The notes: generated by a model not told the origin, from the sequence alone. A stretch of 14,937 nucleotides of DNA from Sulfolobales archaeon (GCA_038867615.1 JAWBYA010000015.1:1-14937); one strand, 5' to 3'; shown: positions 1,952 to 14,916, counted from the stretch's first letter. Numbers and translations: made by a program.

Positions 1952-1984
1952 GGAGGCTCCATCTAGTCTCTGCATCCAGAGCAA

Positions 1985-2017
1985 AAGGATTTAGAGTATA
2001 ATATATGGTGTAAAAAG
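1985..2017. promoter_or_regulatory. AT-rich divergent promoter region
   Basis: Short spacer between divergent genes. It contains TATAATATA (about 1997-2005) and GGTG (2007-2010) ahead of the GTG at 2018. Confidence 0.45.
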
Positions 2018-5000
2018 GTGAGGGCTGCGATATATATAGCCCTGATCCTCGCTCTGATATCCATCGCATCACCTGCAGAGCAGATCTATGCCCAGAACCC
2101 GCAGCAGTGGATATCCCAGCCACTGAATTCGAGGAAGATATGGGTTGATAGTGTAAACGGTACCGTTGTTGGTGCGAGTGGCAACCTCATAGCTATATAC
2201 TCCGATGCTGATAAGAAGCTCTACTTCATAGATGCGATGACAATGGATAAGATCTATGAGTTCCCTGTAAGCATACTCCTGATGGATAATGTATCTAGGG
2301 TGATAGATCTCTCCGCTGTGAATAGAGAGTGGAGCGGCTTCCTAGTCCTCTCAAGATCTTCAGCAGCCATTGTAGACCCTAGGAGCGGGTATATATATGC
2401 CAGGTTCGGGCTACCGGGGAGCATAGTTGGTTTCAGCGACAACGCGGTATATCTATATAACCCCGAGGCTGTTGTGTGCCTCGATATGAAGAGCCTGAAG
2501 CCCGTTGGAACCATGCCGGTGAAGCTCGGAGCCGCATCCGTGATTATGAATCCACAGGCCTATGGCATAGACCCATGGTCATCCCTGGTGAGGTATTCGC
2601 GGGGAGCTGGCACAGATCCCTCATCACCTCCCTCAGCAACCACCACCGCTTCTAACTATTTCAGAATGATTGTTGATTGGCTGAACAAGACACTCTCAAC
2701 ATCTGGCCTCGTGCTCAGCGATGTTAGTGGGGAGTCTATATACATACCATATAGATCTGGTTCCCTCGATTTCAGGGATATATACAGTATAATATCTACT
2801 GAGGTGAACGGTGCATGGTGCAGAGTATCGGAGCTGAAGACATATGTAGCTGCATCTTATAACGTTCTATCGCCGTTCACGATATCCTTCACAGCCACAG
2901 CCCATGTGATCAACAGCTCATCCGGCGAGACACTGACACTCCTCGTAGACTATATAGCCAGGGATGACGGTACACAGATACTCGTAAATGGAACAGATAT
3001 ATTCACAGCACTGAACATAACAGCCACAGCTGGTGGCGGCGGTGTGCTATCGACAGCTAGGATCCTGATAGGTGTTGTCGAGATGCGGATGATAACAAGT
3101 GTCAGCATTAACACGATCATGAGGATAGCTGTTGTGAGGGCAGGATCAGCAGGTGGGTTCGACAGCTTCGCAGCAATATACCAGCCATACGGTGGGCTGC
3201 CAACCCTTGCAACATACACGGAGAACGGGGTCATAGGATCAGTAACGCCCCCGCTAGACCCATTTGAATATCGTGTGGTGGGCTCCAGCTGGTCATCTGT
3301 TGCCCTCTGGAAGCATGTACTTATGCCCGGTCAGAGCCACTTCGCCATATATGACACATCTAAGCCAACATATCTAAGCCTCATATACGCTGTTAAAGCC
3401 GATGCTCTTGAGCTCTACCCTAGTTCCGATGGTAGCTTCCTCTTCACAGCCGCCACAGGGGGTGGCGGGGTTGTTGAGATCGGATATGTCTTCAGATCAT
3501 CGGCTGTTAGCACGAGAATTGTTGGTGCTGCAGTTACAAATGCATTCATAGTCTCAGCATCTAGATATGTCTCTGGCAATACTACCTTCTTCTTCGTAGC
3601 ATCCACAGATCCTTCGATGATAAACACAACCATAGCTTCGTTTGCGTTACAGGTGGAGCTTGGAACACTATCCATCGTGTCCGCCTCGCCCGTTAGTGTT
3701 CTCTTCGAGTGGAACGGATTCTCAAGGTCTTTCCAGATGCAGCCAAACACATCTATCCAGCTACCCCTTGGAGCCTCTGTAAAGCTATTCATATCTGGCA
3801 AGCAGGTTTTCACAGGTGTTGTGACTAAGAACCTCGTAGTAGATCTGATGCCCTTCGCAACAGCATCTAACGAGACCAGGGTTGTTCAGCAGATACCCCC
3901 GGAGCTCTATGTGCCGAGACCAGCCCAGGAGATCGGTATTGAGAAGGGGCTATTCCTATTTGTAAATCTAAGCTCAGTTACTCTTAAGAGGCTCTCGCAG
4001 GAGGGTCTTGATCTTGCTATGAACGACTTCTACATAGCCGTTGCGGAGAGGGGCTGGGCATCTATATTCAACAGGTCTGGTGATATGGTGTGCAGGGTGG
4101 CTACTGGTGAGCAGCAGCCAACCAGGGTAGAGATGATCGGTAGAAGCGTAGCAGCTATATACGGCTTCTGGGGAGTCTCGCTCATCGACGCATCGACATG
4201 CACGATCATGGCATCGTATATGGGGCCAGCATCCGTCTCACCACCAGATCTCCTGCTAGCATCGTGGGGCGGAACCCTCGTGAAGATCCTAAGCATGTCC
4301 ACGGGCGAGGTATACTCGGTGCTACAGTCACCTGATAGCATTATATTCGCATACCCAGTGACCAAGGGGACTGCGATCGTTGTTGCGGGGTCTGCCGCAT
4401 ATGTTATCACACCATCCTCTGCAGCCAGGCTTGTACCCCCGAACGAATCGGTTGTATCATATGCATCGAGCCCAGGCGGGGTTGCCATCTCAACCCAGAG
4501 ATCCATGATAGTATATACACCCTATACAGGGCTTATCACATCAAACATAAGCGATCCAGTGACTGGTTTCTACTGGCTCAACGGATACTCCGTGGGAGGC
4601 GTTGTAGCTGTTGTTGTTGGTCAGAGCTGGGTATGGGCTGTCAAGGCTACTGGGGAGATAACTCCTATAATGCCTCTACAGGGCAGGCAGGTTCTCGGTG
4701 TTAGCAGGAGCGGCATAGCCGTTGGATCTGCTAACTCATCCATTGTTCAGCTCTATGACTTCAGCGGATCACTCAGAGCATCTATATTAATGCCGTTCCA
4801 ACCATCCAAGGCGATCATCATTGGGAGGAGCCTATCAGCCATAGGGGGATCTGCATACTATGCACCAGATATAGGAGAGGCTATATATAGCCTCTCGATT
4901 CTATATGCATCGCCAAGCGATGGAATGCCAGCGAACGTGTCAATACCGGAGATATCCTATGAACGAGTGCTGAGACCGGGCGAGTCGGCTACGATATATC

Positions 5001-5986
5001 TGGCATACAGGACTAACCTCACAGTAATAGCCACAGCCCCATATATGGAGGTTTTCAGAGCATCTGTGGAGATATCTGACAGGAACAGATACCCTGCGAT
5101 CCCGATCAATATGAGGTGGACGCTATACCCGGTGAACATATCTGTCTACGTTGTGAAGGCCAACAATATGACTGAGCTGGCACCGAACGCCTCTGGCTAT
5201 ATAGAGGTGGCTGGGCCTGGCGGGAGATACAGGCTAGACGCACCCGGTGGCGTGCTAATGCTCAGATATGGTAACTACAGCATTTCATTCATATCGAGCT
5301 ACTATGCGAACTACACAGACTACTATGTAATAGACTCCCCAAGATCTATATCGATCAACACGTCGAAGCTATATACCGACATATTCTTCGAGGTTCTGGA
5401 CGAGGCTAACAACCCGATCCGGGGTGCCAAGATCGCTGTGGAGGGCTTCGGATCCGCTGTTACGGATGCCAGGGGCAGGGCATCGATCCAGATGATTCCT
5501 CTGGGCTCCCTCGTCAATGTGAGCATCGGTGCCCCAGGGTTCTACACATCCGAGAAGCAGATACCAGTATCTGATATGGCTATATACAGGGAGATCCTCA
5601 GGAGGATAACATGCCAGCTCACCATAACAGTCACAGATGCTAATGGCATGCCATCATCTGCAACAGTGTTTATAATGAGTGAGAACGGGACACAGCTATT
5701 ATCATCAACAGTTGCCTTCACAGGGAACTTCACAATACCATATGGCAGGTATGTTGTTAAAAGCCCGGTATCGCAGGATCAGCCGATAGCCTGTGCCTCC
5801 GGGGAGAACATATCTGTGAACATAGTCACCCCACCCCCGCCAACCCCAACTATTACGCAGACACAGCGGCCCGGAGGCATACCGATCATAGGTAGCCAGC
5901 AGAACCTAGCACTAATAATACTGATCATAACCATTGCATCAGCGATGGGTGTGATCGTATATAGGCTGCATAGGAGAAGGATCTAG
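2018..5986 (+). CDS. Large secreted, C-terminally anchored surface glycoprotein/adhesin (beta-propeller-like regions plus PEGA/carboxypeptidase-regulatory-like beta-sandwich repeats)
   Basis: Sec signal MRAAIYIALILALISIASPA. Propeller-blade-like segments such as KLYFIDAMT, VSLIDASTC and VQLYDFSGS. Transthyretin-like stalk motifs VLDEANNPIRGAKIAV..TDARG and ITVTDANG. About 25 N-x-S/T sequons counted by eye, a Pro/Thr linker, a C-terminal TM helix and the basic tail RLHRRRI. Confidence 0.85.
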   Translation: MRAAIYIALILALISIASPAEQIYAQNPQQWISQPLNSRKIWVDSVNGTVVGASGNLIAIYSDADKKLYFIDAMTMDKIYEFPVSILLMDNVSRVIDLSAVNREWSGFLVLSRSSAAIVDPRSGYIYARFGLPGSIVGFSDNAVYLYNPEAVVCLDMKSLKPVGTMPVKLGAASVIMNPQAYGIDPWSSLVRYSRGAGTDPSSPPSATTTASNYFRMIVDWLNKTLSTSGLVLSDVSGESIYIPYRSGSLDFRDIYSIISTEVNGAWCRVSELKTYVAASYNVLSPFTISFTATAHVINSSSGETLTLLVDYIARDDGTQILVNGTDIFTALNITATAGGGGVLSTARILIGVVEMRMITSVSINTIMRIAVVRAGSAGGFDSFAAIYQPYGGLPTLATYTENGVIGSVTPPLDPFEYRVVGSSWSSVALWKHVLMPGQSHFAIYDTSKPTYLSLIYAVKADALELYPSSDGSFLFTAATGGGGVVEIGYVFRSSAVSTRIVGAAVTNAFIVSASRYVSGNTTFFFVASTDPSMINTTIASFALQVELGTLSIVSASPVSVLFEWNGFSRSFQMQPNTSIQLPLGASVKLFISGKQVFTGVVTKNLVVDLMPFATASNETRVVQQIPPELYVPRPAQEIGIEKGLFLFVNLSSVTLKRLSQEGLDLAMNDFYIAVAERGWASIFNRSGDMVCRVATGEQQPTRVEMIGRSVAAIYGFWGVSLIDASTCTIMASYMGPASVSPPDLLLASWGGTLVKILSMSTGEVYSVLQSPDSIIFAYPVTKGTAIVVAGSAAYVITPSSAARLVPPNESVVSYASSPGGVAISTQRSMIVYTPYTGLITSNISDPVTGFYWLNGYSVGGVVAVVVGQSWVWAVKATGEITPIMPLQGRQVLGVSRSGIAVGSANSSIVQLYDFSGSLRASILMPFQPSKAIIIGRSLSAIGGSAYYAPDIGEAIYSLSILYASPSDGMPANVSIPEISYERVLRPGESATIYLAYRTNLTVIATAPYMEVFRASVEISDRNRYPAIPINMRWTLYPVNISVYVVKANNMTELAPNASGYIEVAGPGGRYRLDAPGGVLMLRYGNYSISFISSYYANYTDYYVIDSPRSISINTSKLYTDIFFEVLDEANNPIRGAKIAVEGFGSAVTDARGRASIQMIPLGSLVNVSIGAPGFYTSEKQIPVSDMAIYREILRRITCQLTITVTDANGMPSSATVFIMSENGTQLLSSTVAFTGNFTIPYGRYVVKSPVSQDQPIACASGENISVNIVTPPPPTPTITQTQRPGGIPIIGSQQNLALIILIITIASAMGVIVYRLHRRRI

Positions 5987-6010
5987 AAGCTAAACAGCAT
6001 ATCAGATCTC

Positions 6011-6022
6011 TTTCCCTTTTTT
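6011..6022 (+). terminator. Oligo-T/pyrimidine tract, probable archaeal terminator
   Basis: TTTCCCTTTTTT lies 25 nt after the stop of the 1322-aa gene. Confidence 0.5.
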
Positions 6023-6024
6023 CC

Positions 6025-7470
6025 ATGCATTTTGTTCATTGCAAATATCCGCTGTGTTTTTGGTGTGGTGTTCTGCTTAGAGCGGAGATAGTGCCGATAG
6101 AAGGTGGGAAAAGAAGGCTTCTCGGGATAAGGGCTTTTTTCAGCGTATCCACGTACATGCCATCCCTGATCAGGGATAGGCTTCTCCTCTGGAGCAGGCA
6201 TGGTGTGTTCATAGCATCGTCTAGGAGGGAGGGTGAGGTTATCAAGAGAATGATCATGGCCGGTGTTGTGTTCACAAACGCACCATCGCTTCACTCAACA
6301 GTTAAAAGGGTCTTCAGAGGATCTCTCAGGGATTACCAGGAGGAGGCTCTCTCAACATGGATATCGAGGGGTTATAGAGGCATCATCTCCCTACCAACAG
6401 GCTCTGGGAAAACCGTTGTAGGTGTTGCTGCAATAGCATCTATAGAGCTGCCAGCCCTCGTAGTTGCATCGACGGTCGAGCAGGTTAGGCAGTGGAGCGA
6501 GCATCTCTCGAGGCTAGCATCTATATCCCCTGTCGTGGTTCACTCGAAGGTCAAGAGACAGCCTAGCCTGGAGGAGATTCTCTCCGCCGATGTCGTGGTA
6601 ACCACATACGCCACATGTGCAAAGAGGATCGAGATACCTGCTACGAGGAGGGCCCTGGTGATAGACGAGGTTCACCACCTGCCGGCACCGTATTTCAGGA
6701 GGATTGTGCAGGCAAGCCCTGCTAGCATTGTTCTAGGGCTATCAGCTACACCGCATAGGGAGGATGGGAAGCACGAGGAGCTATTCCCGATGATAGGCGG
6801 TGTCATATATCATAGATCTGCTGAGGAGCTCGCCTCGAAGGGATACCTAGCAATGTATAGAGTCTACAGCGTCCCCGTGAAATTGCACCCGAGCGAGAGG
6901 AGGGAGTATGAGGAGGCTGTCAAGATGTATGAAGAGTTGAAGGGTGATCGAAGCTTCGAGGAGCTCGTGGAAGACGCCAAATGGGATGAGACAGCTAGAG
7001 AGGCTCTGAGGATGAAGTCAATAGCAAGGCAGATAGCACTCATGAGCGAGTCGAAGATATCGGCTATAAAGAGGATCGTATCGAGACACCTGATGCTAGG
7101 CGATAAGGTGATAGTGTTCACAGAGTATGTTGATCAGGCCAAGAGGCTTGCTGAGGAGCTCGGAGCACTCCTGATAACAGGCGATACACCCGCCAGAAAG
7201 AGGGCCGAGGTCTTCAACAGATTCAGGGAGATGCAGAGCGGTGTGCTAGTAATAACGAGGGTGGGTGATGAGGGTATAGATATTCCGGATGCGAATGTGG
7301 GGATAATAGCTAGTGGGACTGGGAGTAGGAGGCAGTATATACAGAGGATAGGCAGGCTCCTCAGGCCAAAGCCCGGGAAAACAGCTGTTATCTACGAGGT
7401 ATTCACAGCGGATACAACCGAGAAGTTCGAGGTTAGAAGGAGAAGAGGTATAACTACTACACAGGGGTGA
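6025..7470 (+). CDS. xpb: XPB/Rad25-like superfamily 2 DNA helicase
   Basis: Q motif LRDYQEEAL, Walker A LPTGSGKT, DEVH, motif III LSATP followed by the XPB-type RED motif (HREDG), a helical thumb-like insert, EGIDIPDA and motif VI QRIGRLLR. The true start is uncertain and probably downstream (CTG 6073 after GGTG, or GTG 6091). Confidence 0.88.
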   Translation: MHFVHCKYPLCFWCGVLLRAEIVPIEGGKRRLLGIRAFFSVSTYMPSLIRDRLLLWSRHGVFIASSRREGEVIKRMIMAGVVFTNAPSLHSTVKRVFRGSLRDYQEEALSTWISRGYRGIISLPTGSGKTVVGVAAIASIELPALVVASTVEQVRQWSEHLSRLASISPVVVHSKVKRQPSLEEILSADVVVTTYATCAKRIEIPATRRALVIDEVHHLPAPYFRRIVQASPASIVLGLSATPHREDGKHEELFPMIGGVIYHRSAEELASKGYLAMYRVYSVPVKLHPSERREYEEAVKMYEELKGDRSFEELVEDAKWDETAREALRMKSIARQIALMSESKISAIKRIVSRHLMLGDKVIVFTEYVDQAKRLAEELGALLITGDTPARKRAEVFNRFREMQSGVLVITRVGDEGIDIPDANVGIIASGTGSRRQYIQRIGRLLRPKPGKTAVIYEVFTADTTEKFEVRRRRGITTTQG

Positions 7471-7477
7471 GATATGG

Positions 7478-9019
7478 CTACGAGAGGATGCTTCTCTTAT
7501 TCTTCTTACTATTCACGATCTGCATGAGCCTCTCTATCTCGTTCAGAACCATCGTGGGTGCTCCGAGCATCTTGGATGTCCTGTGCATGGATTCCAGATC
7601 CGATGCCCTTGTAACAAGGTCTACCGTGAAGCTCTCCACAGCAGTATATAGATCTGTTATGCTCAGGGTATCTCTCCCGCTAGCCACAGCGGCTATCACC
7701 GCGTGCTTAGCTATAGCCTCGATCTCCCTCGGTGTGTATCCAACTATGGCCTCTGATATATAGTTTATAGCGTTCTCCATCTTCTGATCCCTGTTCACCG
7801 AGACACCGACCTCGGCGGTATATCTCTCTATAAAAGATGTTAATAGTGCTTTGACATGCTCCTTGCTCGGGGGCGGCGGGATCGGGATCTTTATGTTGCC
7901 GAATATAGGGTCTTTGACCAGGTACTCGGGGAGCTTAGATATCGATGAAACTGTTATGACCATCACGACGTTCTCAGCACCCTCCATGATCTTGTTCACA
8001 AGGATCTCCCTGGTTCTCGCCATGGTGCTGTCCTCACCACCAGTACCTGTATTGTGCTGTACAAATATAGACTCTATATTCCTTATGATGAGGAAACCGC
8101 CGCCGCTCCTCGAAAACCCATCTAGGGCTGCACCCATGTTCCTCTCGGTCTCTCCGAACCACTTGCTCAGCATACCCTCTATATTCAGCTTGGCGGCCCT
8201 CACACCGAGCTCATAGGCTATTGATGATGCTAGCGTTGTCTTCCCACCCCCGGGAGGGCCGAAGATCATGATTGATTTGAAGAAGTGGGGGTTCCTGGAG
8301 AGGGGCTTCAGAATAGCCCTCGATATTATATCTGCTATGCTCTGGCTGAGAACAAGCTCCGAGAACCTCTTCGTCCTCCTGATCGGCGAGAGCCCCTGTG
8401 GGAGCAGTGCTTGCGAGGATATCTCAGGCTTCTTGAGGCTACGTATGGAGGAGCTGATCTGGGGTGCGACGACGAGATCTGCTAGTGTGAAGAATATAGA
8501 TGTGTTCGCAAGCCTCTCGGGCATCGACGTGAGGATCGCCATCTTATATCTATAACCCCTTATCGCTGAGAACCCGTAGAACCTTGCCACAGCAGATATG
8601 AATCTCTGTATGCCTGACTGCCCGGGCTGTGCTGACTCCTGCTCCAACGCTATATCTACATCTGTTATGAACGCCACCACGTGGAGGTTACCCGGGGCTC
8701 TGCCATGGTACATGGAGATCTCGGAGTGGAGCTCCTCCTCAGCTGTGAGTGTATGTGCCTCGCTATAGCTCCTCACAGTAACATATATCTTATCATCTAT
8801 GATGTAGCCGCTGAAGAGCCTCAGGATATTCCATGTTAACGATAGGGAGGCTGGGTCTTGTATTTTGATAACGACTATTGGGGATTTAGATGCAGCTGCT
8901 ATCCTTGCTAGTGTTGCTATGTAGTTCATCGCCTCCTCATCGCTTATCGATATGTCTCTCCAGATATCCTCCCTCTCCTCGTACTCCTCCCTCTCAACCC
9001 TCCTTACCCTGTGGCTCAA
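7478..9019 (-). CDS. AAA+ ATPase-like protein, Ycf46-like architecture, with a degenerate Walker B
   Basis: Walker A GPPGGGKT (8237-8260) and pore loop SKWFGETERN are present. The Walker B position reads FLIIRNIE and the SRH region reads TVSSISKLPEYLVKDPIF. The N-terminal half resembles a decayed AAA domain. TTG start with AGGAGGT 6 nt upstream. Confidence 0.85.
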   Translation of the reverse strand: MSHRVRRVEREEYEEREDIWRDISISDEEAMNYIATLARIAAASKSPIVVIKIQDPASLSLTWNILRLFSGYIIDDKIYVTVRSYSEAHTLTAEEELHSEISMYHGRAPGNLHVVAFITDVDIALEQESAQPGQSGIQRFISAVARFYGFSAIRGYRYKMAILTSMPERLANTSIFFTLADLVVAPQISSSIRSLKKPEISSQALLPQGLSPIRRTKRFSELVLSQSIADIISRAILKPLSRNPHFFKSIMIFGPPGGGKTTLASSIAYELGVRAAKLNIEGMLSKWFGETERNMGAALDGFSRSGGGFLIIRNIESIFVQHNTGTGGEDSTMARTREILVNKIMEGAENVVMVITVSSISKLPEYLVKDPIFGNIKIPIPPPPSKEHVKALLTSFIERYTAEVGVSVNRDQKMENAINYISEAIVGYTPREIEAIAKHAVIAAVASGRDTLSITDLYTAVESFTVDLVTRASDLESMHRTSKMLGAPTMVLNEIERLMQIVNSKKNKRSILS

Positions 9020-9777: not shown

Positions 9778-9801
9778 GCTGTTAAGAAATAACAATTGAT
9801 A

Positions 9802-11217
9802 ATGGGGATGGATATGTTGATTAGAAATGTGGGTGCTAGGATTGCTCCCATCCTCATCGTATCCCTGGTCATACTCTCCGCTATACAGGCTCCTCATAGG
9901 CAGGGGCTTATGCAGGGAGGGATCCAGGGTCTGTATTTCTATTCCGAGGAGGGCTCGTGGGTATCCCAGTTCACATTGAGAACTGGTACATATACATATC
10001 CGAATGGATCCACAATGGTTTATAACTATATCGATGTATCTCCATTCAGGGTCTTCGCATTGAGGGCGGCCGATCCTAGGTTCTCTAACTTCAGCATAGA
10101 GGCCAGCAGCGACTATATATCTCCACCCAACTCCCTAGAGCTTAGATTCGGCAGCGGGGTCTCCGAGGACTTCTCATTATATCTCGGGCTGCGTAGCGGG
10201 AGTGCACCCAACCTCTCCAACGGGATTGTATATGGTGCTGAGTTCTACATAAAGATCTCGGATCTCTATGTAGACCCGCAATACATCGATCCGAGTGGTG
10301 TTTCTAAGACGCTCCGCCTAACCCTCTCGATCTGCCCCCTAAGCTCTGTTACCATGAACATGTCTGCCTGCATAGTATACTCGGATATCTATATTATTGC
10401 TATATATAATGGTAGTGGCTATGTACTCCAGGTCTTTCCGGCACTAATCAACACAAAATATCAATATGAGCCCTATGTAAATATCCAGTATATGTTTAGG
10501 AAAGAGTATAACACAACCGTCGGCTCCTGGCTGAACCTCAGGCTATTGATGATCTACAACGCTTCTACCGGGAGAATCCTGGTGGCTGTCGAGGCCGATG
10601 GAAAGACTGTACAGGCTGTGCTGCTCAACCCCTTAGACCAGAGGTTCCTAGACCTCCTAGCCTCGGATCCAATTGCCGGGATAGGGTTTGAAATGTCCAA
10701 TGTAGTCCCATATCTCGCGGGGAACACAACCATCAGGATCGATGACTTCGGCCTCTTCTACGGAAAGGGGTGGTTCTCGGAGGAGGCACTGCTAGGATAT
10801 ACCCAGACCACCACAGAGTACTACCCGCCCCCACCAGCGACAACGACTAACACGCAGCAGCCAACGTGGACGTGGACGCCACCGCAGATCTATACTGTGA
10901 CTGTTACAGAGAGGGTCTATATAACCGTGCCAACCCCAGTATATATCACAGCATCATATCCATACACACCAATGCCCCAGTCAATACCGATGGCGACGGT
11001 CACCGCTACAGCGGCTGAGACAAAGACACAGTACATAACCGTTGAGAAGAGATACACAGAGGCGTTATCAACAACAACAATAACCATATCGAGGCTGATA
11101 ACACAGCAGATCCGGAGCGAGGGAGGAATAACAGACACAGGACTAATAATAGCCACAGCAATCACAGCAATCGCAATAATAACAGCATCAATGATCAGAA
11201 CAAGAAAGAAACAATAG
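9802..11217 (+). CDS. Secreted, C-terminally anchored surface glycoprotein with a possible ConA/LamG-like jelly-roll domain and Thr/Pro-rich stalk
   Basis: Signal peptide RIAPILIVSLVILSAIQA and 8 N-x-S/T sequons. GSWLNLRL..YNASTGRILVAVEADG and IRIDDFGL resemble ConA-like strands. A long Thr-rich linker precedes a TM helix and the basic tail RTRKKQ. The start lies in 9796-9814. Confidence 0.8.
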   Translation: MGMDMLIRNVGARIAPILIVSLVILSAIQAPHRQGLMQGGIQGLYFYSEEGSWVSQFTLRTGTYTYPNGSTMVYNYIDVSPFRVFALRAADPRFSNFSIEASSDYISPPNSLELRFGSGVSEDFSLYLGLRSGSAPNLSNGIVYGAEFYIKISDLYVDPQYIDPSGVSKTLRLTLSICPLSSVTMNMSACIVYSDIYIIAIYNGSGYVLQVFPALINTKYQYEPYVNIQYMFRKEYNTTVGSWLNLRLLMIYNASTGRILVAVEADGKTVQAVLLNPLDQRFLDLLASDPIAGIGFEMSNVVPYLAGNTTIRIDDFGLFYGKGWFSEEALLGYTQTTTEYYPPPPATTTNTQQPTWTWTPPQIYTVTVTERVYITVPTPVYITASYPYTPMPQSIPMATVTATAAETKTQYITVEKRYTEALSTTTITISRLITQQIRSEGGITDTGLIIATAITAIAIITASMIRTRKKQ

Positions 11218-11232
11218 AACCGGTTAGCGAGG

Positions 11233-11305
11233 CTGCGGTAATTACTGATACTGCGGTAATTACTGATACTGCGGTAATTACTGATACTGCGGTAATTACT
11301 GATAC
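11233..11305. repeat. Perfect tandem repeat, 4 x 18 bp (CTGCGGTAATTACTGATA)
   Basis: Units start at 11233, 11251, 11269 and 11287. Each contains the palindrome GTAATTAC. The array is intergenic and has no spacers. Confidence 0.97.
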
Positions 11306-11330
11306 GCTATGTGATTAATGTGGCATTTTA

Positions 11331-11338
11331 TTTATATA
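11331..11338 (+). promoter_or_regulatory. TATA box of the three-gene operon
   Basis: TTTATATA lies 31 nt before ATG 11370, with a GGTG SD-like motif at 11361-11364. Confidence 0.65.
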
Positions 11339-11369
11339 CCACGTTAGCAATGTATGTTTTGGTGGGTAG

Positions 11370-12050
11370 ATGATTAAAGATCTCCTCGGGTACAGGTTAA
11401 TCGATTCTCAATACCTATCTGCTTCACCACGGAGGGCTGAGCTGTTTGTGCAGGGGATACTCGCTGATCATTATAACGAGCTAAAAGCATACCTCTTCGA
11501 GCACGGATTTACATTGCTCGGCGAATTCCTCGAGAGCGATGTCGAGAAGGTATCATCTGTCTTCTCATATATTGCACTTACAGCTGCCCTACCACTACGG
11601 CTCGTGAAAATAGATAAAGATAACATAAAAAGGTTTGCGAGGAGAGCTACGGATGTTTATGAGTGGCTATATGGTACATATGAAAAGCAGCAACATGCTG
11701 CGACACATGTTAGTGTGTTCCTGAGGTTCTCACTAATGCGTGTTATAAATCTACTTGATATGCTGGCAGATGGGAAAATAGGCCCTGACGATATCAGGAG
11801 TATGGATGTCTACAACGCGTTCGTGGTCGGATCCTTTTTAAAGTCTGTAGCGATATGCGATATATACGAGAAGATCAGCAATTACATGGGGAGCGGGGGT
11901 TCATGCTTGCCACCAGATATAGCTATTTTGTTCTCGTACGCCCTGGGAGAGCCACTTACAAAGACGATCCCAGAGATAGTTAGTGTTAGGCTTGTGAAGT
12001 CAGATGTAGTGCTAAGGCTATATATTATTGACATGGGGGTGAGGAGATGA
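11370..12050 (+). CDS. Hypothetical protein (226 aa, mostly helical), apparent paralogue of the next gene
   Basis: Long ORF with an upstream TATA box and SD motif. Its stop overlaps the next start (ATGA at 12047-12050). No family motif was recognised. Confidence 0.85.
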   Translation: MIKDLLGYRLIDSQYLSASPRRAELFVQGILADHYNELKAYLFEHGFTLLGEFLESDVEKVSSVFSYIALTAALPLRLVKIDKDNIKRFARRATDVYEWLYGTYEKQQHAATHVSVFLRFSLMRVINLLDMLADGKIGPDDIRSMDVYNAFVVGSFLKSVAICDIYEKISNYMGSGGSCLPPDIAILFSYALGEPLTKTIPEIVSVRLVKSDVVLRLYIIDMGVRR

Positions 12051-12748
12051 TCGAGCTGAAGATACATGATATACTCAGGTATTCGTGGATAAGATTTGTT
12101 GATGATACAGATATATTTAGCATAACAGCGAAGGACAAGATCTTCTACACAGCACCGACCGATATATATTCCGCAGTGGTCAGGGATCTCTTCTTCGAAA
12201 CATCTCTACACCTACACAGGTATAAACTAGGTATGGTGGAGGGTGTGGGAGATGATCTGATATCAACGTTAAAGGACACATCGATAACAAAGACAGCCGG
12301 GCTCGCCATGGCAGCGGTATATTGCCTGATGAACCTCGGCGTTGCAAAATCCGTGGTCAGGGCTGACGAGCTTTTGAAGGAGGTTCTGTCGATCTACGAT
12401 GCACTCGGGGACTATAGGTATATATTCGATCGCAGGACGGGATTTGTTGTACCTATTCTTTCGAAGAAGGGGAGGGATGCCAGGGATAGTCTCAATATGC
12501 TGAGACTCGGCATAGCAATCAGATCACTTGTACTCGCGAACATGTTAAAAGAGACACTTTGGGAGAAACTCAGCATGGATCTCGGTGTGCTTGCACTCGA
12601 GCTATTGAATAGCCTAGTCAATAGCCCGACACCAAGGGTTAGGGATCTATTCAGGCACTATACATTCGAAATCAGGTTTAAAGACGAAAACAAAAGAAGA
12701 TTATATGCACATACATATATATTGAAACTAGCAACACAGCTGGGATAA
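12047..12748 (+). CDS. Hypothetical protein (233 aa, mostly helical), apparent paralogue of the previous gene
   Basis: ATGA overlap with the upstream gene and GGGGTGAGG SD motif. No family motif was recognised. Confidence 0.85.
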   Translation: MIELKIHDILRYSWIRFVDDTDIFSITAKDKIFYTAPTDIYSAVVRDLFFETSLHLHRYKLGMVEGVGDDLISTLKDTSITKTAGLAMAAVYCLMNLGVAKSVVRADELLKEVLSIYDALGDYRYIFDRRTGFVVPILSKKGRDARDSLNMLRLGIAIRSLVLANMLKETLWEKLSMDLGVLALELLNSLVNSPTPRVRDLFRHYTFEIRFKDENKRRLYAHTYILKLATQLG

Positions 12749-12795
12749 GCTTTGGACTTCAACAATAATTCGGCTTAATCTTTAGGGGTGGTTGG

Positions 12796-14916
12796 TTGAA
12801 GGGCCCAACTATATGTGTTGAGAGCCTCTCCGGATCCGCCGCTGAGAATCGACAGCCACTATGTGTTCCATTCAGAATAGACCCCGGGGTCACTCTTGTG
12901 CTTGCGGGGAATAGCTATGGTAAGTCCTTTGCCGCGAGGATCATCCACGAGATCTTCGCATATACAGGGAATCTACAGAGCAACGTCCTGGTCGAGGAGC
13001 ACAGGGTAGAGGTTGAGAAGGGTAAAGAGGTTACGGTGGCGAGGGTCAGGGTTCACAACCCAGGCGAGATCCTGGATCTCTTCAAGAGGTACATGCTCTT
13101 CAACTTCGACCAGGATAACCAGTACAGCGGTCTCGGGATCTTCGTATCTGAGGATGCGATGAGATATGTTGCTAGAAACAAACCAGCCCTTACAATGTTT
13201 CCGGAGACACCGAGCACGTTCCTTGATAGGATGATCGATGGTGCGTTGAAGACCTTCGATATTCTTGGATTCGATAAGGAAGCAAGTGCTAGGATTAAGA
13301 AACTGCTTGAGAGAAAGAAGAGGATATTAGATGCATTTGCAACAGAGCCAGGGAAGAGGAGGATAAAGCCACGGGACGCGGATGAGGTTGCTGCACAGAG
13401 ATTGCTTGAGGAGCTGAAGGAAGAGGCTGATGAGCTGAGCAATAGGTTGGATGAGCTTAGGTCTGAGCTCGCAGCGATATCCGAGATCGATATAAACACT
13501 ATATCGAGGGAGCTTGAGAGGAGGAAGATGAAACTTAACGAGCTGAGGAATGAGAAGAGAAGGATTGAGGAGGAGCTGAATAGCGTGGCATCGAAGCTCG
13601 GGATCAGCGTAGATTATAACAATCTGGGGGCATTCGCAGACACAGTATCTGTGTATAGATCTAGCATTGAAAAGAAGCGGAGGGAGATAGAGGAGGAGAT
13701 CACAACAGTAGAGTCTATAATGGCGAGGGTGAAAAATGCCTCGGACACGGTATCAAACATGGTTGGAAATGTTGTTATAGATGATAAGGAGAAGAGGGTA
13801 AAAATACCGCAGCTCGAGACAACGATTGCTGTGATCAAGAGTAAGATCAACGAGATATCGAACATAAAGCTATACGGTGGTGATGCTGAAACGATTAGCG
13901 ATGTTAAGAAAAGCATTGATGACGCTGCATCTATGTGCACAAAATATGGGGATGCATGCAGAGGTCTTGATTCACTTGCAACGTTATTAACAGTTGTTGC
14001 CGATATGCTGGGTAGAGCTGAGATAAATACCAGAGATCTTGACAATGCTGTGATCAGGCTGAGGTCAGCTGTTGATGATCTTGAGAAGGCTGCTGAGAGG
14101 CTTGGGAGAGAGCTGTACACAAAGATCTACAGGGATGTCATTGCAATCAAGAAGGAAGCCCAGATTGTGCTATCTAGCATCGAGACCGTGCTGTATTCGC
14201 TGAGGAATGAGAAGGGGAAGCTTGAGAGCAACAAGATCGATGTTGATGTCTCCTCACTGGTGGATAGATATAGCACGCTGACAACGGAGATCAGCAGGGT
14301 TGAGGAGGAGGTAAAGCGTCTCGAGGAGGAATATAGGAAAGCCCTAGCTAGTGCTAGCGATGACAGGAGGACGAGGATTGTGAATGAGATAGAGTCGATC
14401 GAGAGGAGGCTTAAAGAGATCGAGAGCCAGATAGCGAAGATCGAGGCTATGAGGTCACCGAAGGATGAGGAGGCAATAACAGATGAGGATCTCGGGAGCA
14501 TCAAATCATATGTGGACGGCTGTAAAGCTATATTCGAGAGGTTCTATGAGACGCTTCTGGCAAGATATATTGAGAGCAACAGGGAAAGGGTTCTCAGCCC
14601 GAGGATCATGAGCACGAGCACATATATATCGTACCTAGTATCTGTGTCGGTTGCGTTCAACTATCTCCTGAACCGCTTCCTATCAGACTATATAAGGATC
14701 CGCTGGGGCTTTGGCGAATCAATACCCCTGATCATCGACATACCAGCTGCATATGATACAGAGCATCTGAAGACCCTTGTAGAGCTGCTATACAGATACG
14801 CAGTCGAGAACAACGTGAGGGTATATATATTCTATGTCAGCGACAGGCCATTGGTGATCAATATAGGGAGTAAGGAGGAGCTGGATGAGGCTCTAAACAC
14901 CCTCCAGACGATCTAA
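12796..14916 (+). CDS. SMC/Rad50/SbcC-superfamily coiled-coil ABC ATPase-like protein with divergent motifs
   Basis: N-terminal P-loop GVTLVLAGNSYGKS, then two long heptad coiled-coil arms. The C-terminal signature position reads MSTST and the Walker B/D-loop reads PLIIDIPAAYDTEH. TTG start after GGGGTG. Confidence 0.85.
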   Translation: MKGPTICVESLSGSAAENRQPLCVPFRIDPGVTLVLAGNSYGKSFAARIIHEIFAYTGNLQSNVLVEEHRVEVEKGKEVTVARVRVHNPGEILDLFKRYMLFNFDQDNQYSGLGIFVSEDAMRYVARNKPALTMFPETPSTFLDRMIDGALKTFDILGFDKEASARIKKLLERKKRILDAFATEPGKRRIKPRDADEVAAQRLLEELKEEADELSNRLDELRSELAAISEIDINTISRELERRKMKLNELRNEKRRIEEELNSVASKLGISVDYNNLGAFADTVSVYRSSIEKKRREIEEEITTVESIMARVKNASDTVSNMVGNVVIDDKEKRVKIPQLETTIAVIKSKINEISNIKLYGGDAETISDVKKSIDDAASMCTKYGDACRGLDSLATLLTVVADMLGRAEINTRDLDNAVIRLRSAVDDLEKAAERLGRELYTKIYRDVIAIKKEAQIVLSSIETVLYSLRNEKGKLESNKIDVDVSSLVDRYSTLTTEISRVEEEVKRLEEEYRKALASASDDRRTRIVNEIESIERRLKEIESQIAKIEAMRSPKDEEAITDEDLGSIKSYVDGCKAIFERFYETLLARYIESNRERVLSPRIMSTSTYISYLVSVSVAFNYLLNRFLSDYIRIRWGFGESIPLIIDIPAAYDTEHLKTLVELLYRYAVENNVRVYIFYVSDRPLVINIGSKEELDEALNTLQTI

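Follow-up and report, generated by a model that had tools for sequence, protein, structure and literature searches.

A lineage-restricted three-gene operon with a diverged Rad50/SMC-like protein and an upstream palindromic repeat array in a hot-spring Sulfolobales archaeon

The window, that is, the whole 14,937-bp stretch of DNA analyzed here (JAWBYA010000015.1), is the entire contig C15 of the 2.22-Mb, 28-contig assembly of a Sulfolobales archaeon (genome G000). It carries a lineage-restricted three-gene operon, located in an accessory and probably mobile region of this hot-spring organism, in which two orphan proteins designated P1 and P2 are followed by a diverged Rad50/SMC-like coiled-coil protein of 706 amino acids (aa). 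We tentatively propose, with somewhat less than even confidence, that P1 and/or P2 bind an array of 18-bp palindromic repeats lying directly ahead of the operon and recruit the 706-aa protein as a hydrolysis-poor, Rad50-like tether for the maintenance of a mobile element. The features on which this proposal draws are as follows, in window coordinates; ORF denotes open reading frame and nt denotes nucleotides.

9796..11217, + strand: upstream neighbor encoding a 473-aa protein (translation)
11233..11305, no strand: 18-bp repeat array (tandem-repeat call)
11331..11338, + strand: TATA-like element TTTATATA, read from the sequence, 26 nt 3' of the array and 32 nt 5' of the P1 ATG
11361-11366: GGTGGG, between the TATA-like box and the P1 ATG at 11370
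11370..12050, + strand: P1, 226-aa orphan protein (ORF)
11406..11433, no strand: micro-inversion in P1, codons 13-21, separating the type of G000 and metagenomic runs X1 and X2 from that of genome G001 and run X5
12047..12748, + strand: P2, 233-aa orphan protein (ORF), its start overlapping the P1 stop as ATGA
12796..14916, + strand: 706-aa diverged Rad50/SMC-like coiled-coil P-loop protein, TTG start
12904..12927, + strand: Walker A motif AGNSYGKS, residues 37-44
13936..13959, + strand: Cx6C motif (C381...C388), a candidate hook-like dimerization or metal site
14608..14757, + strand: C-terminal head segment with MSTSTY and PLIIDIPAAYD

The repeat array and a distant lineage

All of the components that had been described in an earlier reading of the window from its sequence alone (the sequence-only reading) were found in the window: an array, a TATA box, two ATGA-coupled ORFs of 226 and 233 aa, and an ORF of 706 aa, all co-oriented. 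The gap between P2 and the ATPase gene is 47 nt and contains GGGGTGG ahead of the TTG start. The same reading took the operon to be self-contained and undescribed, and this agreed with scans of Pfam, NCBIfam, PADLOC, and PHROGs, no library among these describing it. In the titles and abstracts listed there was likewise no description of such a module, which does not prove that the module is unpublished.

The array at 11233-11305 has a period of 18, 4.1 copies, and 100% matches of the unit CTGCGGTAATTACTGATA. Each unit contains a perfect 8-bp palindrome, GTAATTAC, within an imperfect 12-mer (10 of 12). At up to two mismatches, the unit was unique in the 2.22-Mb assembly, all four of the matches obtained being those of the array itself. 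Only 2 of the 17 arrays in the genome with a period of at least 12 and at least three copies were perfect (100%), namely, the window array and one on contig C28. Since the array is both perfect and unique in the genome, it was deduced not to be a chance feature, and it is proposed to be a candidate cis site, either an operator or a centromere- or iteron-like element, as far as its sequence indicates. The second perfect array lies at 4954-5072 of contig C28 (L071) and has 6.6 copies of the 18-bp unit AACTAGCTATATTTCTGG. Behind it, a TATA-like box and GGTGGGT occupy the very end of the contig, so that the next gene is unassembled; no overlapping contig end was found for it, and the region is absent from G001.

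A more distant lineage was reached through the ATPase. When 1.84 billion representatives were searched exhaustively with HMMER, two proteins were obtained, P0002 and P0006 (E 2.3e-38), and a second metagenome scan with P0006 as the seed gave 11 loci. The gene call of P0006 starts too late, and locus L042 has ATT where locus L047 has ATG. At L047, a gene for a membrane-anchored protein of 456 aa comes first, followed by ORFs of 214 and 244 aa that overlap, the gene for an ATPase homolog of 732 aa, and that for a 178-aa protein. The ATPase homolog aligned with the window protein from end to end at 25% identity (E 2e-42) with the Walker A motif kept, and the 456-aa protein was 37% identical (E 2e-47) to the 473-aa protein upstream of the window operon. 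The three genes put forward in the sequence-only reading as one module thus recur in the same order in a lineage in which the ATPase is only 25% identical.

The intergenic position occupied by the array in the window was also occupied by repeats in this lineage, and these repeats were of other sequences. L048 carries 4.1 copies of an 18-bp unit, TAACTACCGAGCAGGTAG; L047 carries two copies of TATAAACCAG with a spacing of 17 bp, contained in the palindrome GGTTTATAAACC; and both L044 and L052 carry two copies of AAGTGATATCACC at 17-bp spacing. A TATA-like element was also present ahead of the P1-like gene at each of these four loci. The repeat scan of 177 kb of related loci gave 10 rows at a period of at least 14 and at least 85% matches. 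Repeats with a period of 17 to 18 bp, at least 2.1 copies, and at least 94% matches were confined to this one position; the other rows had about 2 copies at 86 to 88% and lay elsewhere.

The proteins of the repeat-variant strains are 71 to 88% identical to one another, yet their repeats differ completely, and the repeats therefore turn over far faster than the genes. Replacement of the sequence itself with retention of its period, position, and core palindrome is the behavior of binding sites with specificity under diversifying selection, comparable to that of plasmid iterons and centromeres. Such turnover at a fixed position, as deduced from these sequences, is the strongest evidence that the array may be a functional cis element of the operon. 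The sequence-only reading had named the array as the cis site of the module, and that assignment, still a candidate one, gained real weight from the finding of other 17- to 18-bp palindromic repeats at the same spot in the distant lineage.

The 706-aa protein, its partners, and their distribution

To relate the 706-aa protein to Rad50, an 8-row alignment of its family was compared with an alignment of 13 Rad50 proteins from the same order by the use of hhalign. The N-terminal region matched the P-loop region of Rad50 at the equivalent position with a probability of 90% (E 1.4e-6; reversed control, E 0.24), and the Walker A pattern PGxTxxLAxNxxGKS was invariant in 4/4 aligned family members. 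Like Rad50 and SbcC, the protein has an N-terminal strand followed by a GxNxxGKS P-loop and a helix at the same alignment position, two long helical arms between which, at the midpoint, lies a Cys pair, and a C-terminal hydrophobic strand that ends in Asp and leads into a D-loop-like AAYD. Unlike Rad50 and SbcC, it has Ile in place of the catalytic Glu: in the Walker-B/D-loop-like PLIIDIPAAYD, D648 is invariant, and I649 takes the place of the Glu in 4/4 members. An LSGG-type signature was absent before Walker B, where the position is taken by MSTSTY with T607 and S608 invariant. The Cys pair is a Cx6C motif (C381 and C388), invariant in the family and situated at the apex between helical arms of about 200 residues on either side; the CxxC zinc hook of Rad50 and SbcC is absent. 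Further differences are that no Mre11/SbcD-type nuclease is adjacent, P1 and P2 having no Pfam family at E <= 1, and that neither head matches the Pfam and NCBIfam models that were strongly matched by the genome's own Rad50.

The AlphaFold2 (AF2) model of the 706-aa protein had a mean predicted local distance difference test score (pLDDT) of 56.7, with long helices over residues 162-594, arms reaching up to 92, and heads below 50. In the predicted AF2 secondary structure, the Cx6C motif would lie between helices 364-380 and 385-405. A Foldseek search with this model gave Rad50 chains as the first two matches (E 1.6e-5, template modeling [TM] score 0.13), followed by dynein stalks, axonemal proteins, and the MukB elbow; because the query-normalized TM scores were 0.07 to 0.16, these matches were treated as coil-driven. 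Matches in Pfam, NCBIfam, PADLOC, and PHROGs were weak only and fell within coiled-coil residues 162-593. The head pieces alone gave no ABC/SMC family in Pfam or, by phmmer, in the PDB, the rows obtained being at chance level (in Pfam, DnaB_2 at E 0.13 with the C piece; in the PDB, E 0.47 to 2).

The sequence-only reading had called the protein a split ABC ATPase. This was borne out for the N-terminal part by the Walker A motif and the Rad50 match (E 1.4e-6) but not for the C-terminal part, which has no significant match, no catalytic Glu, and no LSGG-type signature. Our reading of these motifs is that the protein probably belongs to the Rad50/SMC-like clade, as a member that has diverged strongly and has kept nucleotide binding. 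The loss of the catalytic Glu and of the canonical signature points to a slow or nonhydrolyzing clamp.

The possibility that the 706-aa protein is the orthologous Rad50, raised against its own proposal by the sequence-only reading, was contradicted by the true Rad50-Mre11 pair on contig C2. The genome's own Rad50 has 777 aa with SMC_N, AAA_23, Rad50_zn_hook, and SbcC_Walker_B, and it is adjoined by a Metallophos (Mre11-like) gene. Identity with the ASRP family (ClsN/coalescin and Sph) was also considered. The ASRPs are spread over broad archaeal lineages and have Walker A, Walker B, and a zinc hook, as described in the portion of PMC9389158 consulted. The 706-aa protein resembles the ASRPs in being archaeal, in the size class of about 600 to 700 aa, in its head-coiled coil-head order, and in its Cys-containing apex, and it differs in the lack of CxxC and in its very narrow distribution. 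The assignment was rejected, as the ASRP model (NCBIfam NF045487) gave 34.4 bits against a cutoff of 300 bits and matched only the coiled coil at residues 205-558. The ATPase homolog of L047 gave 29.6 bits with the same model.

P1 and P2 had no family in Pfam, NCBIfam, PADLOC (E <= 1), or PHROGs, and a profile of the P2 family found nothing meaningful among PDB sequences. The AF2 model of P2 had a mean pLDDT of 38.9 and, like the heads in the model of the 706-aa protein, was no adequate basis for a fold search. In the ESM Atlas, the top match was 0.90 for either protein, in a cluster with vATP-synt_AC39 in 61% of its members for P1 and in an unnamed cluster for P2; the Atlas models are poor, and these matches are leads only. 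When 5.8 billion proteins were searched by a word index, the 330 candidates for P1 yielded no protein other than P1, and the 391 candidates for P2 yielded P2 and P0005 (55% identical). The claim of the sequence-only reading that P1 and P2 are paralogous was not upheld, the BLASTP match being at E 0.076 and not colinear and the hhalign matches being at E 0.42 and 0.087. Paralogs of P1, P2, or the ATPase head pieces were also sought elsewhere in G000, and only chance-level short matches were obtained (tblastn, E <= 5).

The counterparts of P1 and P2 at L047 were assigned by position. That of P1 has 214 aa (BLASTP E 0.37, hhalign E 0.069, colinear), and that of P2 has 244 aa (BLASTP E 0.02, hhalign E 0.0025, with residues 135-209 colinear to 133-205). 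P1 and P2 are the fastest-evolving members of the set, with no significant BLASTP match in the L047 comparison, in which the ATPase is 25% and the surface protein 37% identical. P1 is proposed to be an array-binding or adaptor subunit, and P2 is proposed to be a second DNA-binding or adaptor subunit.

In the 5.8-billion-protein search, the 706-aa protein found two proteins at E <= 0.001 among 7,999 scored candidates, P0001 (99%, the G001 copy) and P0002 (51%). The module was present in 2 of the 351 genomes of the class (E <= 1e-6), G000 and G001, and since the two operons are 98% identical in DNA, they were counted as one lineage. A "match" in G031, found among 41 relatives (E 1.6e-4 over 125 coiled-coil residues), was judged not to be a homolog. 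At least 73% of the sampled words were found in 5 of the 16 public runs listed, all of them hot-spring metagenomes and together from four studies. Pattern scans built from the first alignment found no locus in metagenome, genome, or viral contigs, the N-terminal words being missing from the miscalled P0006. Nothing was found in IMG/VR scans with the proteins P0016 and P0018 or by tblastn against PLSDB plasmids and INPHARED phages, and P0018 gave nothing meaningful against PDB sequences. Metatranscriptome contigs of one run cover positions 11240-11428 and 12331-12553 only, and as DNA may contaminate such libraries, this coverage was not taken to prove expression.

Natural variants were of two kinds. 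Runs X1 and X2 have the window form, and G001 and run X5 share a variant with an inverted P1 segment, an array of three full units and a diverged fourth, and a 4-nt insertion ahead of the ATPase start. The inversion involves 26 to 28 bp, a perfect match of 28 nt being present on the opposite strand; the reading frame is kept, nine residues are rewritten, and the flanking inverted repeat never exceeds 1 nt. The ratio dN/dS between G000 and G001 was based on too few differences to inform. In the distant lineage, L049, L050, and L051 have the same 3,017-bp deletion (L047 6155-9173), by which the 178-aa gene, a gene with a ribbon-helix-helix (RHH) domain, and the greater part of the ATPase gene are lost. 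In L050 and L052, two ORFs take the place of an intact P2-like gene. The shared deletion and the split P2-like genes indicate that the module can be dispensed with and that in some strains it decays as a unit.

Proposed role and alternatives

From the observed anatomy, conservation pattern, motif states, and context, we infer DNA binding, complex formation, metal binding, and a biological outcome in the following scheme. P1 and/or P2, as dimers, would recognize the repeats sequence-specifically, and their binding would repress their own promoter and build a nucleoprotein complex. This complex would then recruit the Rad50-like protein, which would bind ATP, hydrolyze it poorly, and dimerize via its heads and/or the Cx6C apex. 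The Rad50-like protein would thereby serve as a clamp or tether rather than as a motor, bridging copies of the element or tying the element to the chromosome. The outcome would be stable inheritance, with the strain-specific repeats setting the specificity of each variant in the manner of iterons and plasmid centromeres.

This scheme has parallels in plasmid partition cassettes, with which the module shares tandem repeats immediately upstream of the operon and a location on an accessory element. The system of pNOB8 has the gene order aspA-parB-parA. In the portion of PMC9178275 consulted, this three-component partition system is described as consisting of the centromere binder AspA, the adaptor ParB, and the motor ParA, and the division of labor proposed here among site binder, adaptor, and nucleoside triphosphatase (NTPase) would be analogous. 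Unlike the partition cassettes, the module has a Rad50/SMC-like NTPase, with no ParA, actin, or tubulin family match in Pfam or NCBIfam; P1 and P2 have no detectable similarity to the AspA, ParB, ParR, or TubR families, and their binding to the array is putative only.

Several points weigh against the maintenance scheme. We know of no partition system with a Rad50/SMC-like NTPase, and a ParA-like protein is already encoded in the same region. No DNA-binding fold was demonstrable for P1 or P2, for which the models were poor and no family or PDB match was obtained. The C-terminal region of the 706-aa protein aligned in register with the Walker B/D-loop of Rad50 at E 0.29 to 0.34, which is not significant. 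The N terminus of the P1-like proteins co-varies with the repeat type, an association that is inseparable from physical linkage. Synteny of the two lineages extends over the entire block of at least 14 kb, so that the gene order may reflect common descent rather than selection for linkage and is weak evidence. Since the second perfect 18-bp array, on contig C28, precedes an unknown gene, arrays of this kind may serve more generally as operators in this organism or element.

The main rival, which we regard as unlikely, is that the operon is a Lamassu-like (ABC three-component) module of defense or conflict. P1 would then be an LmuA-like partner or effector, P2 would be an LmuC-like specificity factor of the helix-turn-helix (HTH) type, the 706-aa protein would be an LmuB-like derivative of Rad50/SbcC sensing foreign DNA, and the array would be an autoregulatory operator only. 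The order of two small genes and a final SMC-like gene matches that of LmuA-LmuC-LmuB (DdmABC), with LmuC just ahead of LmuB, in the portion of PMC12663957 consulted. As described there, LmuB is of SbcC/Rad50 ancestry and can be short, with a Walker B motif diversified as hhhhD[Q/S/T/E], and LmuC is HTH-like, its models resembling HTH factors; a Rad50/SbcC-derived coiled-coil ATPase with a noncanonical Walker B is found here as well. Small, fast-evolving partner proteins and a patchy distribution (here 2/351 genomes) are further points in common with that description, and deletion variants exist. The best PADLOC matches of the ATPase were to LmuB models (E 1.2e-8 and 2.9e-7), and the second gene downstream, on the opposite strand, is PLDc_2 nuclease-like.

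Against the Lamassu reading, the five LmuB models that matched (E 1.2e-8 to 0.056) did so entirely within coiled-coil residues 164-557, the heads were missed by the LmuB models, and the matches to LmuB, JetC, DndD, and PbeC taken together were confined to residues 164-593. P1 and P2 matched no LmuA or LmuC model and indeed no PADLOC model at E <= 1, and no effector domain was recognizable in the 226-aa P1 with Pfam, NCBIfam, or PHROGs. The Walker B motif here reads D-I, which is outside the LmuB set. The conserved upstream repeat array goes unmentioned for Lamassu in the portion of PMC12663957 consulted, and a defense role leaves two to four palindromic repeats at a fixed spot with replaced sequence unexplained. 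The module also differs from the Wadjet, MksBEF, and MukFEB systems, in which an SMC protein of the JetC/MukB type, with more than 1,000 aa, has kleisin and KITE partners: JetC matched the coiled coil only, and the profiles have lengths of 1097 to 1472 versus 706 aa here; the JetA, JetB, and JetD models of PADLOC did not match P1 or P2. The kinship with MukFEB, Wadjet, or Lamassu that the sequence-only reading had drawn from the layout was not supported beyond the layout, the PADLOC matches being to the coiled coil only and none being to P1 or P2.

Slightly less likely still is a second alternative, in which the operon is a DNA-processing accessory of the replication, recombination, or transfer of the element, for example, by tethering ends in conjugative or pilus-mediated transfer, and in which the array is the operator of a strain-specific repressor with no role in inheritance. 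It would suit the Rad50-like architecture, the membrane-anchored surface protein that is always the upstream neighbor, and the neighboring genes for Prim-Pol, PolB, helicases, a T2SSE ATPase, an UpsF/BasF-like platform protein, and a VirB4/HerA-like ATPase. Against this, the operon has no nuclease partner by Pfam or NCBIfam, the catalytic Glu is missing in 4/4 aligned members, the operon is deleted in some strains while its neighbors stay, and its sole tie to the transfer genes is that of lying within tens of kilobases of them. The last alternative, an ordinary Rad50, ClsN/ASRP, or arcadin-4 ortholog with two unannotated neighbors, could draw on the weak coiled-coil matches to ASRP, SMC, and Rad50 models and on the two Rad50 chains heading the Foldseek matches (E 1.6e-5, TM 0.13), but it is highly improbable and already contradicted by the Rad50-Mre11 pair on contig C2, by an ASRP score of 34 bits against the cutoff of 300, by the lack of a CxxC hook, and by occurrence in 2/351 genomes of the class compared with Rad50 relatives in 24/41 genomes of the order (E <= 1e-20).

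Returning to the array-bound tether, a wider claim can be framed, plausible yet doubtful: that the operon represents a new class of archaeal mobile-element segregation and incompatibility system, in which a fast-evolving, site-specific protein pair loads a Rad50-like tether, deficient in hydrolysis and with Cx6C as its hook, onto iteron-like arrays that differ from strain to strain. If true, it would be the first partition-type system in which an SMC-superfamily protein takes the place of ParA, ParM, or TubZ. Targeting of the Rad50-like tether to the repeats by P1 and P2 would mean a fourth kind of NTPase in DNA partition and maintenance and would also offer a simple model for the site-specific loading of SMC-like proteins. 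Members of the SMC superfamily act as chromosome organizers, as repair factors, and, as recognized more recently, as immune sensors; to our knowledge, none is directed to a dedicated, rapidly diversifying cis array beside its own operon. Little is understood of the mobile elements of Crenarchaea and of how they are inherited, and natural variants that differ only in the repeat sequence and a few protein segments constitute a ready-made system for specificity swaps. Should the module be Lamassu-like instead, that family would be extended to hyperthermophilic archaea with an unrecognized effector.

The surrounding region

The 473-aa protein encoded directly upstream has a hydrophobic segment at the N terminus, a stretch rich in Thr and Pro, and a membrane anchor at the C terminus, and it has no family in Pfam, NCBIfam, or PHROGs. 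A 79% identical copy was found in G001 and none in G002 to G005. Because it is conserved directly upstream in the distant lineage as well, it is regarded as context that is possibly linked to the module.

The region extends over at least 60 kb on contigs C19, C79, and C27 of G001 and is split in G000 over C16, C25, C15, C24, C20, and C27. In G001, the ATPase gene is followed by a convergent gene for a 170-aa coiled-coil protein, with no fourth co-oriented gene; the suggestion of the sequence-only reading that an effector or a kleisin might lie past the right edge of the window was not supported. The 170-aa protein is 56% identical to the co-oriented 178-aa gene product of L047 and has relatives (21 to 34% identity) in 33 of the 41 genomes of the order. 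Its gene lies at 3770-4279 (-) of G001 C27 and at 6704-7198 of G000 C24, and its product is 85% identical between the two genomes compared with 99% for the ATPase. In G000, the end of the contig falls precisely between these two genes, and the step from 99% to 85% at this break suggests a boundary of recombination or of strain variation.

The region consists largely of ORFans, and a Pfam family was assigned to only 9 of the 44 ORFs on the flanking G001 contigs. The families there include Prim-Pol, PolB, a DEAD helicase, a T2SSE ATPase, AAA_10/DUF87 (VirB4/HerA-like), and ParA-like and KaiC-like proteins, and further genes of the region encode an UpsF/BasF-like membrane protein, a PLDc_2 protein, and a TFIIB-type zinc ribbon. 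The GC content of the small contigs of the region is 48.5 to 50.9% versus 44.9 to 46.9% in the six largest contigs. Judged by its gene content and composition, the region is probably an accessory, mobile element, to which no known plasmid or virus record in the collections searched corresponds.

G001 has a segment of 7.6 kb, carrying the T2SSE and PolB genes, to which nothing in the G000 assembly corresponds. The XPB helicase of the window is a second copy, the one on contig C2 being 51% identical. Contig C14 of G000 (L055) is a paralogous block of the window (2018-9019): its 1342-aa CarboxypepD_reg protein is 46% identical to the 1322-aa window protein, its AAA ATPase is 42% identical, and its 484-aa surface-like protein is 27% identical; a DEAD helicase is also present. 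Scans for tRNA and Rfam families gave no matches in the window or in locus L004 (G001 C27, equivalent to G000 C24). At 10070-10187 of that locus there is a GC-rich element of about 110 nt, without a tRNA or Rfam match, of which copies of 35 to 110 nt at 81 to 95% identity occur on several contigs of G003, G004, and G005. A family-less ORF of 311 to 334 aa, at 1955-2956 (-) of L047 and at 10646-11578 of G000 C14, is 84 to 92% identical between the lineages, its neighbors being 25 to 56% identical, which suggests either recent exchange or very strong constraint.

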